Origin: Turneriella sp.
Lineage (GTDB): Bacteria > Spirochaetota > Leptospiria > Turneriellales > Turneriellaceae
Direction of reading: 5' to 3'
NCBI GenBank assembly: GCA_965279515.1
Contig: CBDIID010000003.1
Coordinates: 4,776,724 to 4,840,723, forward strand
Length of the DNA stretch: 64,000 nucleotides
The translations under genes and the position numbers were made by a program. Below the pieces are notes generated by a model, which saw nothing but the letters and a program-made list of their open reading frames with translations, searched no databases and had not been told where the DNA came from. Shown one piece after another: positions 32,570 through 56,497 of this stretch; position 1 is the first letter of the stretch, and each line of letters begins with the position of its first letter.

Positions 32570-32959
32570 GTGGCGGGTTTACCCGTGCTGCATCCTTATA
32601 CCGCTCTCGTCTGGGGCATGGGGATCTCCCTCGTGCTGTTTTTTGCAGCGTATTTTCAGCGCACGCGCAACAACCGCCTGCACCGGATGCTGGCGATCGG
32701 CGGCGTTGTTTTTAACCTCGTCAGCAGCGTCTACCTCGTCTACATGGTTCGGATCGTCGGTGTTGAAATGGCCGCGCGTTTTCCGGCAGCCGTTGTCATC
32801 ACACACCGCCTGTTTGCGACCGCCATGGCCCTGACGATGCTGGCAATGCTTTATACGGGCATCCGCCGCAGCCGCAACGCGCATATTGCCCTGCACCGCA
32901 TCTTTTTACCGGGTTACACGCTGACTTATATTTCCGGATTGGTGATTTTTCACGGATGA
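32570..32959 (+). CDS. Small 4-TM membrane protein with conserved His residues (DUF420-like)
   Basis: Hydrophobic helices with LHR, THR, HIALH; overlaps the next ATG. Confidence 0.65.
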   Translation: MAGLPVLHPYTALVWGMGISLVLFFAAYFQRTRNNRLHRMLAIGGVVFNLVSSVYLVYMVRIVGVEMAARFPAAVVITHRLFATAMALTMLAMLYTGIRRSRNAHIALHRIFLPGYTLTYISGLVIFHG

Positions 32960-33840
32960 GCACCCCAGATTATATCGTCGGCGACGATGCACAAAAAAAG
33001 CACCTGACAGAGATCCAAAGCAAAAAGGCGGCGGATGTCAGCGTAGACGACCTCAAATTCCTTTCTAACAGAATCCGGCAGAATGCCGTAGAAATGGTGT
33101 TCCGCGCGAATTCCGGGCATCCGGGCGGCCCCCTGGGTCTTGCTGACATCTATGCCTACCTCTATTTTAAAGTCATGAAACTCGAAGGCTCCGACCGCGA
33201 CCGCCTGCTGATCAGCAACGGCCACGTCTGCGCGGTGCGTTACAGCGCGATGGCGATCCGCGGCCAGTTGGGTGAGGGCGAGCTTGCCACATTCCGCCGT
33301 GTCGGTTCGCGCCTGCAGGGGCATCCCTCGACGAAATTTTTTCCCCTGGTCGAAAACTCGAGTGGCTCGCTGGGGCAGGGCCTGGCCAATGCCAGTGGCC
33401 TCGCCCTAGGCTTACGCTTTCAGAAAAACCCGGGCCGCGTGTTCCTGGGCATGTCTGACGGCGAATGCCAGGAAGGCATGACGTGGGAAGCAGCGATGGC
33501 CGCGGCGCATAACAAGCTCACGAACATCCATCCCTTTCTCGATTTCAACAATATCCAGATCGACGGCAAGGTCGAAAAGGTCATGGGTATCGAGCCGCTC
33601 GACAAAAAATTTGCGGGCTTTGGCTGGCTGGTCCGCGTCGCCGACGGCCACGATTTCGGCGCGATCGCCGAGGCCTTCGACTGGTCGCTAAAAAACGAAG
33701 GCGCGCCGAAAATTATACTCTTCAAAACCGTGCTCGGCAAGGGCGTTTCTTTTATGGAAAACAACCCTGACTGGCATGGCTCTCCGCCGAACCAAAAGGA
33801 CCGCGACGCGGCGATGGCAGAGCTTGCGAAAGCAGGCTGA
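32956..33840 (+). CDS. Transketolase N-terminal (TPP-binding) subunit
   Basis: SGHPGG, RDR...SNGH, LQGHP, SGSLGQG, SDGE..EG TPP motif, WHG. Confidence 0.93.
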   Translation: MSTPDYIVGDDAQKKHLTEIQSKKAADVSVDDLKFLSNRIRQNAVEMVFRANSGHPGGPLGLADIYAYLYFKVMKLEGSDRDRLLISNGHVCAVRYSAMAIRGQLGEGELATFRRVGSRLQGHPSTKFFPLVENSSGSLGQGLANASGLALGLRFQKNPGRVFLGMSDGECQEGMTWEAAMAAAHNKLTNIHPFLDFNNIQIDGKVEKVMGIEPLDKKFAGFGWLVRVADGHDFGAIAEAFDWSLKNEGAPKIILFKTVLGKGVSFMENNPDWHGSPPNQKDRDAAMAELAKAG

Positions 33841-33994
33841 GCCCTCCGAGGGCCACGAATTTTTCTCCGGACGCCGTTTGGCGATAATCAAGGCCGCTGC
33901 GCTTGTGGAAGCGATTCCACGGGGGCGGGAAACATTGCATCGCATTTTACCGGGGCTGCTGGCTAAGGAGTCAGGGGGCGGAGCGGTCGCCCGA

Positions 33995-34019
33995 GCAGCG
34001 CGTAAAATTTGCTGTCTGC
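33995..34019 (-). repeat. Degenerate attC-like junction end (junction 4)
   Basis: gcagcgcgtaaaatttgctgtctgc matches 34852-34876 at 21/25; the GTT core is mutated to GCT. Confidence 0.6.
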
Positions 34020-34090
34020 TACGGTCACGAAGGACCTTGAGAAAATTGAGAATATTGTCTTTCGCGCTTCAGTCGAGACGCTGCCCTTTT

Positions 34091-34636
34091 TCAGAGCTTG
34101 TGAACCATTACATGACGCCTTGTTCCTGCCATCCTCAGAAATTTAAACTTTGCCTTTGCAAAAGTTTGCTTAAAACCCATAAACCTATAACTGGGTGAAC
34201 TTGGTTCGACGGGATAAGCCTCTAAGAATTTTGCACCGTTGCTTTTGGCATATTTCTTAGCATGGTGTACCAGGATATCCACATATCCACGATCTCTATA
34301 CTCTTTCTTTATGAAGAAGCATGCAATGGACCAAGTAGGTGTCAAGCTCTCATCACCACCAAGGCGTTCATATGTATCCCTCGGTGCAATGGAGCACCAT
34401 GCGACTGGTTTAGCATCTACATAGCCAAGCAAGCCGATCGGTATCCCGGCCTGAACGCGTTTTCTTATGAATTTCTTGCGGTTCGGGGACGTATTTTTCT
34501 TGAGCTCCTCTTTGGTCATTCTCCAGGCCATGCACCAGCAATAGCTGGGTGCCCCTTTTGAACGAAACAGAGCATCGAAATCGGCCCACGTTGAGGAATC
34601 TACTGCTTTGACAGCGAGTGGCTGAACAACGGACAT
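34091..34636 (-). CDS. GNAT-family acetyltransferase (cassette-like)
   Basis: CWC..WR, GLLGY...PVAWCS, WSIACFF, R.RG, LEAYP, GF motifs; AT-richer than its flanks. Confidence 0.85.
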   Translation of the reverse strand: MSVVQPLAVKAVDSSTWADFDALFRSKGAPSYCWCMAWRMTKEELKKNTSPNRKKFIRKRVQAGIPIGLLGYVDAKPVAWCSIAPRDTYERLGGDESLTPTWSIACFFIKKEYRDRGYVDILVHHAKKYAKSNGAKFLEAYPVEPSSPSYRFMGFKQTFAKAKFKFLRMAGTRRHVMVHKL

Positions 34637-34765
34637 AATTTTTGCCTAAATTTCCAGAAACTTGCGGGAAATCTTTTTTCGGTCACTTAGTTTATCCAAA
34701 GAAGTGCCCTATTAGGATTAGTTCGGCGGCATGGCAGCCGCCGAGTAGCATTGCGCAACCATGAG

Positions 34766-34874
34766 CGCCAACGTGGATTTGACGCTGGTGTCATTTTTTC
34801 AATCTGGAAAGCCGATTTGCGTCAAGAAACGTGGTCGTAGCGAGTCGCGGCGCAGCGCTTAAAATTTGTTAGCT
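34766..34874 (-). mobile_element. attC-like recombination site, 109 bp (junction 3)
   Basis: Minus strand AGCTAAC (contains the upstream gene's TAA)...GTTGGCG; inner arms TTTAAGCGCTG/CAGCGTCAAA pair with one extrahelical base. Confidence 0.7.
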
Positions 34875-35528
34875 GCCGTATTTTTTTCGTTTTTTGAGAC
34901 TTTTGGGCATGCGTGCCCAAAGTACGGTTTGTCGAATCAGGCTTTCTGCGCTGCCTTTTGAATCAGCGGTGCTGCCAACAATTGAAGCTGGTAAGAATCT
35001 GAACCCTGGGCCTAAATCCGTGTGATTGGTAGTACTGATCTCCAAAGTGTTACCGCCTTCATCGGATATTAGCTCAATATTCGTGACTTGCTTTAGGGGT
35101 AATGTAGTTGATCGACCTTTCCTAACTACATAAAGATTGTCAGCATCTAAGAAGACATCTGGGATATCTTTATGCCTTCGAAGAAAAATTACGAAGGCAA
35201 AAATCGTGATAATGACAAAGGCGCCGGAGGCTAAATTAATCCCTTGGTGCCATACAATGTTCGCGCTTACCAAAACTAAAATTACCGTCATAATCGGGAT
35301 AAAGAAACTCCGCTGAAAAGCGCTCGCGCTCGACGAAACCCGAAGTCGGTTTTTTAGCGGCAAGTCCTGAGTAAGAGCCCACTTCTTGAGTGCCGTTAGG
35401 ACCATAGCGTGTCTCTTGGGCAATCGGCTGGGGTCGATTTGCTCGGCTAATTCTTGTAGCTCCGGTTGAGTTTTAGTCTCTAAATAAGCCCAATACTCGA
35501 TATCGGTATCAATTTTTCTTAAAGCCAT
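34869..35528 (-). CDS. Hypothetical 2-TM membrane protein (cassette-like)
   Basis: Two hydrophobic helices plus a PH-like beta region; ATG about 20 nt after a GTT core; stop lies in the R''-like box. Confidence 0.7.
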   Translation of the reverse strand: MALRKIDTDIEYWAYLETKTQPELQELAEQIDPSRLPKRHAMVLTALKKWALTQDLPLKNRLRVSSSASAFQRSFFIPIMTVILVLVSANIVWHQGINLASGAFVIITIFAFVIFLRRHKDIPDVFLDADNLYVVRKGRSTTLPLKQVTNIELISDEGGNTLEISTTNHTDLGPGFRFLPASIVGSTADSKGSAESLIRQTVLWARMPKSLKKRKKYGS

Positions 35529-35542
35529 ATTAAAAATATGTC

Positions 35543-35816
35543 AGCCAACGTGGAACTTATCTGGGGTTGAGTGACGCTTCGTTCAACTTTGTGTTCTGTA
35601 AAGCCATTTTGCGTCACTCAATCTGCCCGGAGCGCCTCTGAAGGCAGAGACTCGCCTACGGCTCGTCGCGCGGCAAAGCACAAAACAAGCGTCCCGCTTG
35701 TGCTTTGTCCGCGATCTTTGGCGCGTAGGGCCGGGCATGCGCGACCCGTCTTCGGGTCTCTGCCTTCAGAGGAGCCACGGCACCGCAGCGAGCGCAGCAG
35801 GTAAATTTTGTTAGGC
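35543..35816 (-). mobile_element. Long attC-like site with nested palindromes, 274 bp (junction 2)
   Basis: Minus strand GCCTAAC...GTTGGCT; inner arms TTACCTG/CAGATAA; internal perfect stems 35567-35577/35611-35621 and 35635-35651/35756-35772. Confidence 0.7.
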
Positions 35817-35840
35817 GCAGTTTTTCTTGGCCACCATGGC

Positions 35841-36026
35841 TCAATTTAAAGCAGATTTGGCTTTAACAGGGGTTGCATATTTAAATTTCAAGCCGTATTG
35901 TTTCTCGATGGTCTTCACAAATTCAGCATTATCTTGCTCAAGCTTAGCAAAATCATAATCAGCCAGTTTCGTGATTTGCCGGATTGTTTCGTGCTTAGTC
36001 TGTATAATCACATCATCTTTCTGCAT
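35841..36026 (-). CDS. Small protein, putative partner/antitoxin of the PIN protein
   Basis: GGAGG RBS inside the end of the PIN gene; MQKDDVII..KHE.I; 61 aa. Confidence 0.65.
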   Translation of the reverse strand: MQKDDVIIQTKHETIRQITKLADYDFAKLEQDNAEFVKTIEKQYGLKFKYATPVKAKSALN

Positions 36027-36028
36027 AT

Positions 36029-36496
36029 TCACCCTCCGTTCTCGAACAGCTCTAATGGGGATATTATACCCGGGGTTGTCAAACCCAATTTAGCGTTTAT
36101 CCGCGAGATATGTATGCGTTTGTTTACGTTCACCAAATGGCTGAAATTCCATGAGAGTAGGTAATCAAATTCGTAAAATGACGCATAAGCCAGATGGATT
36201 GCGTCGCCGCCTTCTTCCTGCGGCATCAAATAATTCTCTACGTAAATCTTGGCAATTTCTTCAATTCGGCTGTGGGGCGTTAATAGCTTTAAAGTTGCGG
36301 CTTCAGCTAGAATTCGATCTTTTCGAGGATAGTTTCCAACCCCCAACTCTCGGATAATTTCAGGAGAAATATAACAATCGAATTTTGGCCTTTGGTCAAG
36401 CCACCATAGCTTTGTCTGCTTGATGAGATAATTCAAATCAGGTCGTTCATCATGCAGATAGCTCAGAATCGTTGAGTCAAGATAAACTGTTTTCAT
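36029..36496 (-). CDS. PIN-domain (VapC-like) ribonuclease
   Basis: VYLDSTILS, S.EI..EL, DAIHLA.A, LLSWNFSH PIN acidic motif pattern. Confidence 0.88.
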   Translation of the reverse strand: MKTVYLDSTILSYLHDERPDLNYLIKQTKLWWLDQRPKFDCYISPEIIRELGVGNYPRKDRILAEAATLKLLTPHSRIEEIAKIYVENYLMPQEEGGDAIHLAYASFYEFDYLLSWNFSHLVNVNKRIHISRINAKLGLTTPGIISPLELFENGG

Positions 36497-36611
36497 TAGA
36501 ATTGGGAGCAGCCTTCCTACTTGCGAAAAATATCCATGAAACAGGCGGCCAAGAAAAATTGCGCCTAACACCTATTACCTGAAAAACTGTGCCGTCGTTC
36601 CCCGACACCTT

Positions 36612-36780
36612 ACTAAATCGCAAAGATGCCATCCATGGCAGCGATTTAGTCCGTAGCCTCATGCTACCTGGAAACCACAAGGACGACCTCCTGTCGGTGG
36701 TTTCTCAGTGACCTCCTGTCACCTGACAAATCCGCAAAGATGGCCTCCTGCCAGCGGATTTGTGCGTAACATCCTGTTAC
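36612..36780 (-). repeat. Three tandem double-hairpin units with GGA loops
   Basis: Units 36612-36667, 36671-36722 and 36726-36780, each a bulged long hairpin plus a 5-bp hairpin. Confidence 0.85.
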
Positions 36781-37697
36781 CGCACAATAATCCGAAAAAT
36801 AAATGGCACGATTAGCATGCCGTTCTCTAATAGCTCTTTCGGCGGTGGGCCGAAGTCGTGTGCCGCGTAGAGCGCCTCGATGCAAGAGCGGTCCAGGGAT
36901 TGAAATCCTAATGAGGAAACGAGCTTCGCGTCGCGCACTACACCCTGGTCATCGAGCAGAAACTGGATGTAGATGTCCTGGCTCGGGAATGTAGCGAAGC
37001 GGGTATAACCAGACGCATGCCCCATGCGGTGGTAAGAATCGCCGAAAGTCGGGTAGGGGTCGCCGCCCGGCGGCGCCCAGACATTCTGGATCTTATTCAC
37101 CATCGAGCGGAAATAACTGTAATGCGCATAACGCGCCGTCGGTATCGCAGGCCGGCCGGCATAGTCCCACGACAGGGCGAAATCGTTCCGCCAGCGGTAA
37201 TACGCCGGTATGCGCATACGCTCTGTCGGAGTCTGTGGTTCGGCCTGCTGTTTTTCCGCGATGGTAATCCGCGTTCGGCCTTCTTTGGATGTCAGAATCT
37301 TTGCGTATTTTTTCGCCGAGACGATGCGCGCCTGCACGCTTTGTTTTTGCCCCGGCGAGAGGACATAGTCATTGGAGATCGACTCAAAACCCTTTTCTTT
37401 CGTGAGGTCGCCGCGTGCTTCAGAGTCTTTGTCAGACAGGAATTTCACTGTAGAGCGTTTCTTCTTTTTCTCAATGTAGGTGTTTTCGAGCAGCGCCCGG
37501 ATAATCTGGTCGCCGCTGACCTGGCTCTTTTCAGATTCGCCGAAAATGAGGTTCCTGAGGTCGAGCTCGAGGTAGAGGCTCAGCAGTATGCAGAGCGAGA
37601 GCAGCGCGGAGAAAAAACGCGCAAATGCGGCGTCAGAAATCCGCTTCGACGGGGTCGAATTTACCGCGTTTTCGGATGATGCTTTCGCGAAGGTCAT
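36777..37697 (-). CDS. TonB/TolA C-terminal domain membrane protein
   Basis: N-terminal TM; YF..M..KI...W, F.LD..G.V....L.SS.G...LD..C..AL....FGPPP. Confidence 0.75.
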   Translation of the reverse strand: MTFAKASSENAVNSTPSKRISDAAFARFFSALLSLCILLSLYLELDLRNLIFGESEKSQVSGDQIIRALLENTYIEKKKKRSTVKFLSDKDSEARGDLTKEKGFESISNDYVLSPGQKQSVQARIVSAKKYAKILTSKEGRTRITIAEKQQAEPQTPTERMRIPAYYRWRNDFALSWDYAGRPAIPTARYAHYSYFRSMVNKIQNVWAPPGGDPYPTFGDSYHRMGHASGYTRFATFPSQDIYIQFLLDDQGVVRDAKLVSSLGFQSLDRSCIEALYAAHDFGPPPKELLENGMLIVPFIFRIIVR

Positions 37698-55439: not shown

Positions 55440-55603
55440 AAAAGCCGCCCGAAAACCGGAAACGCTGAATTTTGCCCGTTACCGGGCAAAATCACGCAAA
55501 ACGCTCAGCTGATCAGGCGAATTCACGGCTTTTTTAGGCGCCCGGTGGGACATAATAAAAAATGTATCAAAATAAAAATTCGATCCGTCGAAAATCAAAT
55601 ATA

Positions 55604-56497
55604 ATGGCCGCCAAACGTAACTTCGTCAGCAACTTCAAGGAATACCTGAGTCTGGAGCGGGGGCTCTCTGAGAACAGTATATTCTCTTATATCTCTGACG
55701 TCCACAAACTCGAAAAATTTCTGACGAAGGAAAAGAAGCAGCTACAGTCCGGCTCGCAAAAAGATATCACGAACTTCCTGCGCGAAGAGTCACGCAAGAA
55801 GCTTTCGAGCCGCACGCGCGCCCGGGTTGTGGCTTCGCTGCGCCAGTTCTATGGTTATCTCGAAAACCGCAAGCTGATCGAAACCAACCCGATGCAGATG
55901 ATCGAGGCGCCGAAGATCGAAAAGGCGCTGCCAGATTTTCTCACGCAGGATGAAATTCGTAAATTATTCTCTGTTTTCCGCGAAGAGAGTTTGCTCGAGC
56001 TGCGCGACAAGACGATGTTCGAATTTTTGTATTCTGCCGGCCTGCGTATTTCCGAAGCCTGCACACTGCTTCTGCCCGACGTCGACCGCGAGAACCAGGT
56101 TCTGACCATCAAAGGCAAGGGCGGCCGCGAGCGCCTTGTGCCCTATGGTGAAGTTGCATCCCGTTTGCTCGACCACTATATGGACAAGGCGCGCAATGAA
56201 ATTCTCAACCAGTATGAATCCGAATTCGTCTTTGTTTCGAAAAAGGGCGGGGCACTTTCGCGCAAGAGTGCATGGCGCTTGCTCAAACGCTACATGAAGC
56301 GCGCCGGCATCGGCCGCAATATCACGCCGCACACGCTGCGCCATTCTTTCGCCACCCACCTTCTGCAAAACAAGGCGGATCTCCGCTCTGTGCAGGAACT
56401 TTTGGGCCACATGGATATTGCCACGACACAGATCTATACCCATCTCGCGAACAACGAACTCAAGAAGACCCACGAAGAATTTCACACCCGGAGCTAA
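55604..56497 (+). CDS. xerD: Tyrosine recombinase XerD
   Basis: ERGLSENS..SY.SD SAM-like N-domain; LRD..M.E.LY..GLRISE, GKG..ERLVP, PHTLRHSFATHLL, VQELLGH..I.TTQIYTH. Confidence 0.88.
   Translation: MAAKRNFVSNFKEYLSLERGLSENSIFSYISDVHKLEKFLTKEKKQLQSGSQKDITNFLREESRKKLSSRTRARVVASLRQFYGYLENRKLIETNPMQMIEAPKIEKALPDFLTQDEIRKLFSVFREESLLELRDKTMFEFLYSAGLRISEACTLLLPDVDRENQVLTIKGKGGRERLVPYGEVASRLLDHYMDKARNEILNQYESEFVFVSKKGGALSRKSAWRLLKRYMKRAGIGRNITPHTLRHSFATHLLQNKADLRSVQELLGHMDIATTQIYTHLANNELKKTHEEFHTRS

Follow-up and report, generated by a model that had tools for sequence, protein, structure and literature searches.

Sedentary chromosomal integrons of the Vibrio type hold long one-way arrays of small, mostly unknown genes, many of them toxin-antitoxin genes, in which every cargo is followed by a single site, a cassette's own ends are complementary, crossover falls at G|TT, the sites of a genome are uniform, and a divergent recombinase gene stands beside a simple site. 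A comparable design is found in Turneriella sp., in a window of 64,000 nucleotides (the whole stretch of DNA analysed; contig CBDIID010000003.1, assembly GCA_965279515.1), where an island of three small cassette units lies between a transketolase gene and a gene for a TonB-like protein (Table 1). The repeat family to which its junctions belong shares these properties with the Vibrio-type systems, the divergent recombinase gene with its adjacent simple site being matched where that layout is intact (six of six relatives, not the genome of the window). It differs from them in several respects: the sites are 205-218 bp long with a branched tip, the end stem has 18 bp with a fixed G:T pair, and the candidate enzyme has about 40 residues fewer between patch II and box II than true IntI (IntIA in the Vibrio-type systems; structure 2a3v). 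Classical attC sites are far shorter than 205-218 bp. We consider it probable that the island is a satellite of two large arrays in the same genome, planted, as it seems, through site-specific recombination at an attI-like core and served in trans by an Xer/XerA-like recombinase encoded 1.9 Mb away. An earlier note, made from the sequence alone, had interpreted the island as integron cassettes, and this interpretation is supported by the repeat family, by the pairing of unit ends and by the empty site in relatives.

Of the features that characterise integrons, a palindromic site for each cargo, with ...AAC and GTT... boxes, is present here, and cassettes would start with TT and end with G as a G|TT crossover predicts, whereas an IntI-type integrase with its specific segment near patch III was not found. 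Taken by itself, the island resembles a CALIN, a group of two or more attC sites, as recognised by the attC covariance model, that has no integron integrase close by: two sites and a site fragment stand within 2 kb here and no integrase is nearby, the nearest tyrosine recombinase being XerD. In contrast to CALINs, the sites are not classical attC and the partner enzyme is not IntI. The integrons of other spirochaetes (Treponema-type) belong to the same phylum and follow the same cassette-array principle, but they have a true IntI that matches TIGR02249 end to end and forms, in a quick tree, a clade separate from the array-side recombinases described below. Xer enzymes resolve chromosome dimers at short dif sites and are not known for serving cassette arrays; archaeal XerA (4a8e), XerD (1a0p) and family NF040815 have the same spacing between patch II and box II as our 366-amino-acid (aa) candidate, while the array-side clade is distinguished from them by an N-terminal extension and by its array neighbourhood. 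Mobile modules of the Xer/dif kind are individually flanked by short dif-like sites that carry XerC and XerD arms, whereas the sites here are 205-218 bp long, unidirectional and one per cargo.

Integron searches limit the length of the sites they accept. They also demand the special segment of IntI, the enzyme by which integrons are defined (PMC4889954). The sole Turneriella genome in the census of Cury et al. 2016 is entered as NA for complete integron, In0 and CALIN (PMC4889954), which fits the suggestion of the earlier note that such a system could be missed by standard models. No paper naming both Turneriella and integron was found in the literature collection searched, and a literature search on integron-like systems with tyrosine recombinases returned nothing of this kind among the titles and abstracts listed.

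Cassette units in the genome and in the island

A repeat profile built from 89 copies was searched against the genome of the window (G000; other G numbers denote relatives' genomes) and gave 154 matches, two of them in the window. Two large arrays each hold their copies in one direction (Table 1), and the remaining matches are small clusters and solitary fragments. The junction words listed in the earlier note are present as written; GCAGCNNNTAAAWTTTG occurs 98 times genome-wide and three times in the window (33995, 34852, 35794), compared with none in 100 shuffles. Repeat length is 205-218 bp in 87 of the 89 measured copies, the intervals that separate neighbouring copies (n = 126) have a median length of 701 bp, and G+C content is 0.43 in cargo, 0.57 in the repeat and 0.53 in the genome. 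Further junction copies beside variable open reading frames (ORFs), on which the integron interpretation had been said to depend, occur about 150 times in G000, and repeat copies are present in 11 of 13 same-genus genomes. No Pfam match was obtained for 55 of 89 cargo ORFs, and 18 of the 89 are of toxin-antitoxin types; the cargo of chromosomal integrons is of similar types. Many of the cargo ORFs that lie on the strand opposite to their unit are toxin-antitoxin genes (BrnT, RelB, DUF5615, PIN).

Duplicated cargos define the unit. In all five clean pairs, identity of the left repeat (in plus coordinates) reaches 94-99%, while that of the right repeat is 92% for one pair and 70-77% for the other four, against a background of 76%. 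Left repeats likewise average 91% identity, versus 77% for right repeats, in 55 pairs of a recurrent 176-bp cargo. Each unit is therefore a cargo together with the repeat that lies downstream on the minus strand. Duplicates are alike from AAC onward, and their identity breaks off within AACGT at the left end of a repeat, which reads G|TT on the minus strand; from this comparison we infer a crossover point at G|TT, with a resolution of a few bases. Both the minus-strand orientation of the units and the G|TT crossover had been proposed in the earlier note and are borne out by these duplicates.

The variable bases beside GTT and AAC are complementary across the cargo. All seven pair in 80 of 112 cassettes and six of the seven in another 22, so that 102 of 112 reach at least six (boxes include GTTGTCT, GTTGGGC and GTTAGGC), compared with a mean of 3.9 both for boxes flanking one repeat and for random pairs. 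The pairing spans an 18-bp stem, and in 84 of 85 unique pairs position 11 of this stem is a G:T on the plus strand, where the minus strand would have C opposite A.

When folded as single-stranded DNA, individual copies form an outer stem, a loop of unequal sides, a 10-bp stem and a branched tip; in 87 of 113 copies the loop has GTGG versus TT. The 10-bp L stem covaries, with at least five compensating variants, and its pairs are nearly all Watson-Crick. Of 130 unique copies, 118 fold more stably as the plus (bottom) strand, with a mean advantage of 3.45 kcal/mol, and that strand contains more G:T pairs than the minus strand (3.3 versus 1.3). Because the copies are kin to one another, such numbers exaggerate how independent the observations are. 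In classical integrons it is the folded bottom strand, marked by extrahelical bases, that recombines, cassettes leaving as circles and entering at attI. The consensus fold of the 130-copy alignment was uninformative because subfamilies differ, and single folds and fixed stems were used instead. In the mechanism that we propose, the single-stranded plus (bottom) strand would fold into an R stem, a GTGG/TT internal loop, the 10-bp covarying L stem and the branched tip, and the recombinase would cut at AA|C. Strand exchange with another site would then excise the cassette as a circle, exchange with an AATAGRY|GTT core would insert it, and the G:T would mark the strand used.

In the window, AT-richer, co-oriented minus-strand units between housekeeping genes had been described before, and the ORF list and the G+C content (0.40-0.50 in the island, 0.54-0.62 outside) confirm that description. 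The three junctions (J1-J3, Table 1) are unequal in preservation. J3 is full-length, two insertions of 31 and 28 nt give it an additional palindromic arm, and its single-strand DNA fold has z-scores of -4.9 on the minus strand and -6.6 on the plus strand. J2, also of the family, lacks 15 and about 74 model positions through two deletions; it resembles about 40 genomic copies at 85-91%, its L stem is decayed, and it folds no better than shuffles (z-score about 0). In J1 the GTT of the family is replaced by GCT and the box fails to pair with the 5' box of the GNAT unit, whose ends match at 10 of 24 positions. The lengths of J2 and J3 both lie outside the usual 205-218 bp, and the range of 110-275 bp given in the earlier note for the sites stems from these two atypical copies. 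Its claim that G:T wobbles in the L-like arms occur on the bottom strand only also failed, J3 having one G:T on each strand and J2 two non-wobble mismatches; the strand-specific G:T is located in the cassette-end stem, not in the L arms.

Two of the three units obey the end-pairing rule, as previously noted, and over a greater length than had been stated (23 bp in the PIN-like unit; 16 of 18 positions in the unit of the putative two-transmembrane, 2-TM, protein); the GNAT unit fails. The PIN-like unit has an end stem of 22 Watson-Crick pairs and one G:T, and in both pairing units the plus-strand G:T is at position 11. Only the PIN-like unit keeps an intact end stem together with a full site. 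Since J2 has lost half its length and J1 is without a recombining end, the outpost is probably decaying.

Relatives lack the island. In each of the 12 same-genus genomes where both are present, the transketolase gene directly adjoins the TonB-like gene, the latter being detected in 12 of 13 (the genome without a match is 77% complete), and the gap between the two is about 10-215 bp in 11 relatives, often with one hairpin, and 851 bp in one. Gene content at this position is thus not fixed across relatives; fixed content would have spoken against mobile cassettes. As the site is empty in all relatives examined, the window gives a dated insertion, and it also offers a candidate minimal landing site.

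Table 1. Features of the island, its surroundings and the associated arrays and recombinases. Coordinates are those of the window unless preceded by C3, a contig label.
Feature	Position	Strand	Details
Transketolase-N gene (N-terminal subunit)	32956-33840	+	PF00456, 8e-47
Island	33841-36776		2936 bases; between transketolase and TonB-like genes, these two convergent
J1, right-end (R''/L''-side) repeat fragment, distal end of mini-array	33979-34019	-	41 nt; nhmmer, model positions 181-221 only
GNAT acetyltransferase ORF, cargo of unit 3	34091-34636	-	181 aa; PF00583, 1.2e-7
J2, attC-like site of 2-TM unit	34770-34870	-	AAC to GTT, 101 nt; nhmmer, model 6-115 (57 bits) and 190-222
ORF of unit 2, putative 2-TM protein (name from the earlier note)	34869-35528	-	219 aa; ORF list
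5' end box of 2-TM unit	35532-35549	-	inverted repeat of 34868-34885, 16/18 positions pair
J3, attC-like site of PIN-like unit	35547-35812	-	AAC to GTT, 266 nt; nhmmer, model 1-222, 175 bits
63-aa ORF	35841-36032	-	4-base overlap with end of PIN-like ORF
PIN-like (VapC-like) ORF, cargo of unit 1	36029-36499	-	156 aa from internal ATG
5' end box of PIN-like unit	36547-36569	-	23-bp inverted repeat of 35810-35832
attI-like core upstream of first unit	36570-36584	-	minus strand reads TTTCAGGTAATAGGT, directly then GTT
REP-like small hairpins	36600-36776	.	native to intergenic spot, outside cassette system
TonB_C protein gene	36777-37697	-	right flank of island
XerD gene	55562-56497		TIGR02225, 349 bits, over cut-off
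Array 1	C3:90769-169924		76 copies, all same direction; repeat profile
301-aa orphan tyrosine recombinase	C3:2781225-2782130
366-aa Xer/XerA-like recombinase	C3:2926093-2927193		1.9 Mb from island
Array 2	C3:3734375-3804595		52 copies, all same direction; repeat profile

Candidate landing site and recombinase

The core upstream of the first unit has the AATAGRY|GTT design found at the recombinase-side cores of relatives, at both large-array ends and at other satellites. In five relatives the interval from the recombinase gene to the first cassette contains a shared core, CAGGGAATA-R-A-C/A, after which come GTT and a cassette box, and related genomes diverge just past it: G002 and G011 share 91% identity across 150 nt upstream of the core's GTT and 55% downstream, and G005 and G007 are 85% identical upstream versus 55% downstream over 60 nt. 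AATAG-R-Y stands just ahead of the first cassette box at four of five locatable array starts, the window included. At the heads of arrays 1 and 2 the attI-like cores stand alone, away from the recombinase gene. Searched with up to two changes, the attI-like pattern has 42 matches genome-wide, of which only the two at array ends are meaningful.

The best TIGR02249 score in G000 is 93 bits against a cut-off of 265, and in G000 together with 40 relatives none of the 41 genomes exceeds it (best 93-120 bits), whereas the same search recovers IntI over its full length, at 335-508 bits, in 29 of 301 genomes from the phylum. G000 encodes four tyrosine recombinases, namely XerD, an XerC-like protein, a 301-aa orphan and the 366-aa protein, in addition to one Y1_Tnp gene, far from the arrays, and one large serine recombinase. 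The window itself contains no tyrosine recombinase other than XerD, an ordinary housekeeping type whose gene is 19 kb away from the island. The 366-aa type adjoins an array, at 0.4-1.6 kb and divergent to it, in six of six relatives examined, one copy being broken, and in G029, from another family of the order, it stands beside that genome's own 212-nt repeats. No array was found beside the gene for relatives of this recombinase in G034, G035 and G039, and in G025, another genome with such a relative, tandem units of 600 bp occur at a contig end. The description of the island as integrase-less therefore stands for IntI, of which none exceeds the cut-off, and falls in general, since a recombinase candidate exists; for the same reason the objection that integrase and circles might both be missing is removed only in part.

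The best family of the 366-aa recombinase is NF040815 (XerA-like), with 196 bits in G000 and 222 in G002, and its best solved relative is 4a8e (E 5e-33). TIGR02249 matches the array-side protein at 161 bits, in two separate pieces that leave out model positions 180-239, and the protein has 23 residues where IntI4 (2a3v) has 64. From patch II to box II there are 76 residues in the 366-aa type, 81 in XerD, 82 in the XerC-like protein and 116 in seven true IntI. IntI acts on attC through the segment that the 366-aa recombinase is without. At its N terminus the protein also has about 95 additional aa that belong to no family. In a quick tree the array-side proteins cluster with relatives from metagenomes and with small Xer-like proteins from candidate phyla, and the IntI clade stands separately; the tree does not fix how IntI, the array-side clade and the Leptospira group branch relative to one another. 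A pattern search with motifs common to all Xer-like enzymes returned relatives of 30-47% identity from many phyla, none from the genus, and is uninformative on arrays. It is likely that this recombinase, without the IntI-defining segment, serves the island from afar; mobilisation in trans, the strand used and the role of the enzyme are what we infer.

Immediately upstream of the array-side recombinase gene in G000, G002, G003, G005, G007 and G011 there are two direct copies of TAGAACA, 4-5 bases apart (in G000 at L014:7150-7260, C3:2927150-2927260). This pair could be an operator or an accessory binding site. In G011 four weak, shortened repeat copies with about 460 bp spacing lie beside the recombinase gene (L047:4707-6280; C1:3456707-3458280), and this run looks like a tandem of one small unit.

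Origin of the island and its wider meaning

Based on these comparisons, the island appears to be a decaying satellite of a non-classical, integron-like system whose movement is presumed. Insertion at the core followed by decay is the most likely history, and plain rearrangement is its main rival. It should be noted that several observations weigh against the history we prefer. Excision, insertion or a circle was not seen, and contigs of four public sequencing runs gave no clean joint. The recombinase gene of G000 has kept its upstream TAGAACA direct repeats, but its core and the adjacent array are lost; the link to the enzyme therefore rests on relatives, which as kin are not independent. To our knowledge, there is no precedent for an enzyme without the IntI segment serving such sites. 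J1 ends in non-family sequence without a recombination end, which fits rearrangement or decay better than clean insertion. Within the arrays, the longest ORF runs against the direction of the unit in 37 of 95 cargos, five or fewer of the seven end bases pair in 10 of 112 cassettes, and two IS-bearing duplicate pairs (IS, insertion sequence) lack the contrast between left and right repeats (81 versus 80% and 35 versus 76%).

No joint among the public-run contigs was counted as excision. A joint of 34018 to 34767, present in two runs of one study, has a short side of 21 letters and unknown letters between the sides, and another array copy can explain it; other joints and loose ends are explained by other repeat copies.

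The island could alternatively be a piece of an array that was moved by ordinary rearrangement, either IS-mediated or through illegitimate recombination, and has since decayed and become immobile, with the attI-like core being a chance likeness or a worn site end. The truncation of J1, the loss of some 90 model positions from J2, the mismatches in both L stems and the unpaired ends of the GNAT unit are all compatible with such a relic, as is the distance of the G000 arrays from the recombinase gene. The arrays are, moreover, under rearrangement: a 1335-bp IS is present in at least seven cargos at 98.5-100% identity, each with its end about 8 bp before the next repeat, and another copy truncates the first repeat of array 1 (C3:89395-90675; L009:13395-14675). 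We nevertheless regard this explanation as unlikely, because the core ahead of the first box is common to four of the five locatable array starts, and because the PIN-like unit keeps its perfect 23-bp end stem with the G:T and a full-length site. In addition, no IS was noted in the ORF list of the window between 30000 and 41000, where not all ORFs were scanned for transposase families.

The sites might instead be used by another enzyme of G000, such as the 301-aa orphan, XerC/XerD, the Y1 (HUH) transposase or the large serine recombinase. There is no shortage of such enzymes in this genome, and the 366-aa gene adjoins no array there. Among the recombinases, however, only the 366-aa type adjoins arrays in relatives (the six examined and G029), and the region upstream of its gene contains the conserved core with GTT, whereas matches resembling the 301-aa protein (in G011 and G003; candidate orthologues) lie far from arrays or on another contig. 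We therefore give this possibility little credence.

It is very improbable that the island is a remnant of a classical integron, in other words a CALIN that has lost its IntI gene and whose enzyme was nothing unusual. Layout, G|TT crossover, end pairing and cargo types are indeed integron-like, but the search that detects IntI elsewhere in the phylum detects none in the 41 genomes, and the arrays are genus-wide and stand beside an Xer-like gene in relatives. CALINs have been proposed to originate by secondary-site insertion or by rearrangement (PMC4889954).

We give almost no credence to the idea that the repeats are not recombination sites at all but selfish elements, resembling repetitive extragenic palindromes (REPs) or miniature inverted-repeat transposable elements, or structured RNA such as terminators or small RNAs: they are strongly structured and intergenic, and an ORF-less unit of 176 bp makes up a whole cargo in 11 cases and opens an IS-bearing cargo in two more (90-100% identity), but the variable boxes pair across the cargo and not across the repeat, units duplicate as cargo plus site and end sharply at AACGT, related species diverge exactly past the core's GTT, Rfam gave no match at E up to 0.1 in a 20-kb array stretch, and the sense transcript of minus-strand ORFs would have a C-A mismatch at the G:T mark. 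REP elements are short extragenic palindromes spread by a Y1 transposase of the RAYT (REP-associated tyrosine transposase) type, and the Y1_Tnp gene of G000 is far off.

Returning to the satellite reading, we propose a broader hypothesis, for and against which we see the chances as evenly balanced: that this is a second kind of integron, in which a recombinase of the Xer/XerA type, lacking the IntI segment, operates arrays of over 100 cassettes through branched sites of 210 bp, with the strand set by a single G:T in the 18-bp cassette-end stem, and seeds outposts at AATAGRY|GTT cores, as between the transketolase and TonB-like genes. The genus holds cassette stores of the size and design of integrons without an IntI-type enzyme. 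If the hypothesis is true, such gene capture would be wider than censuses show, the IntI segment would not be the sole way to read a folded site, and the origin of integrons from Xer-like enzymes would become testable.

Cargo genes and minor features

The cargo genes of the island differ in how well they can be named. The GNAT ORF has matches to AAC(6')-type NCBIfam models that are weak and far under the cut-offs. The 219-aa ORF is without a family, its Pfam matches being sub-threshold only, and a homologue is absent from 19 other genomes of the family; its stop codon falls within the GTTAGC box of J2. The PIN-like frame extends over 36029-36571 in the ORF list and encodes 156-180 aa depending on the start. 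The earlier label PIN found no match in Pfam or NCBIfam, but ESM Atlas language-model features lead to VapC/PIN clusters with a score of 0.97, the sole support for the label. Homologues of this ORF, at 29-33% identity, sit within arrays of G000, G002 and G011. The 63-aa ORF, for which Pfam and NCBIfam gave nothing, is possibly its toxin-antitoxin partner, as the overlap between the two would suggest.

The stretch 36600-36776, which lies inside the array as delimited in the earlier note, is not a cassette junction. It consists of small hairpins, of the type CAAATCCGC...GCGGATTTG beside GACATCCTGTCACC, and similar hairpins are found between the same two genes in G002, G006, G010 and G011. Together with the single Y1 (HUH) transposase gene at C3:2616152-2616472, they form a possible REP/RAYT pair.

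Two recurrent cargos of the large arrays may be added. Examples of the 176-bp cargo are located at C3:111124-111299 and C3:3735937-3736112. The 1335-bp IS seems to aim at cassette sites, and the copy beside the first repeat of array 1 contains a 426-aa transposase ORF with rve and HTH domains.

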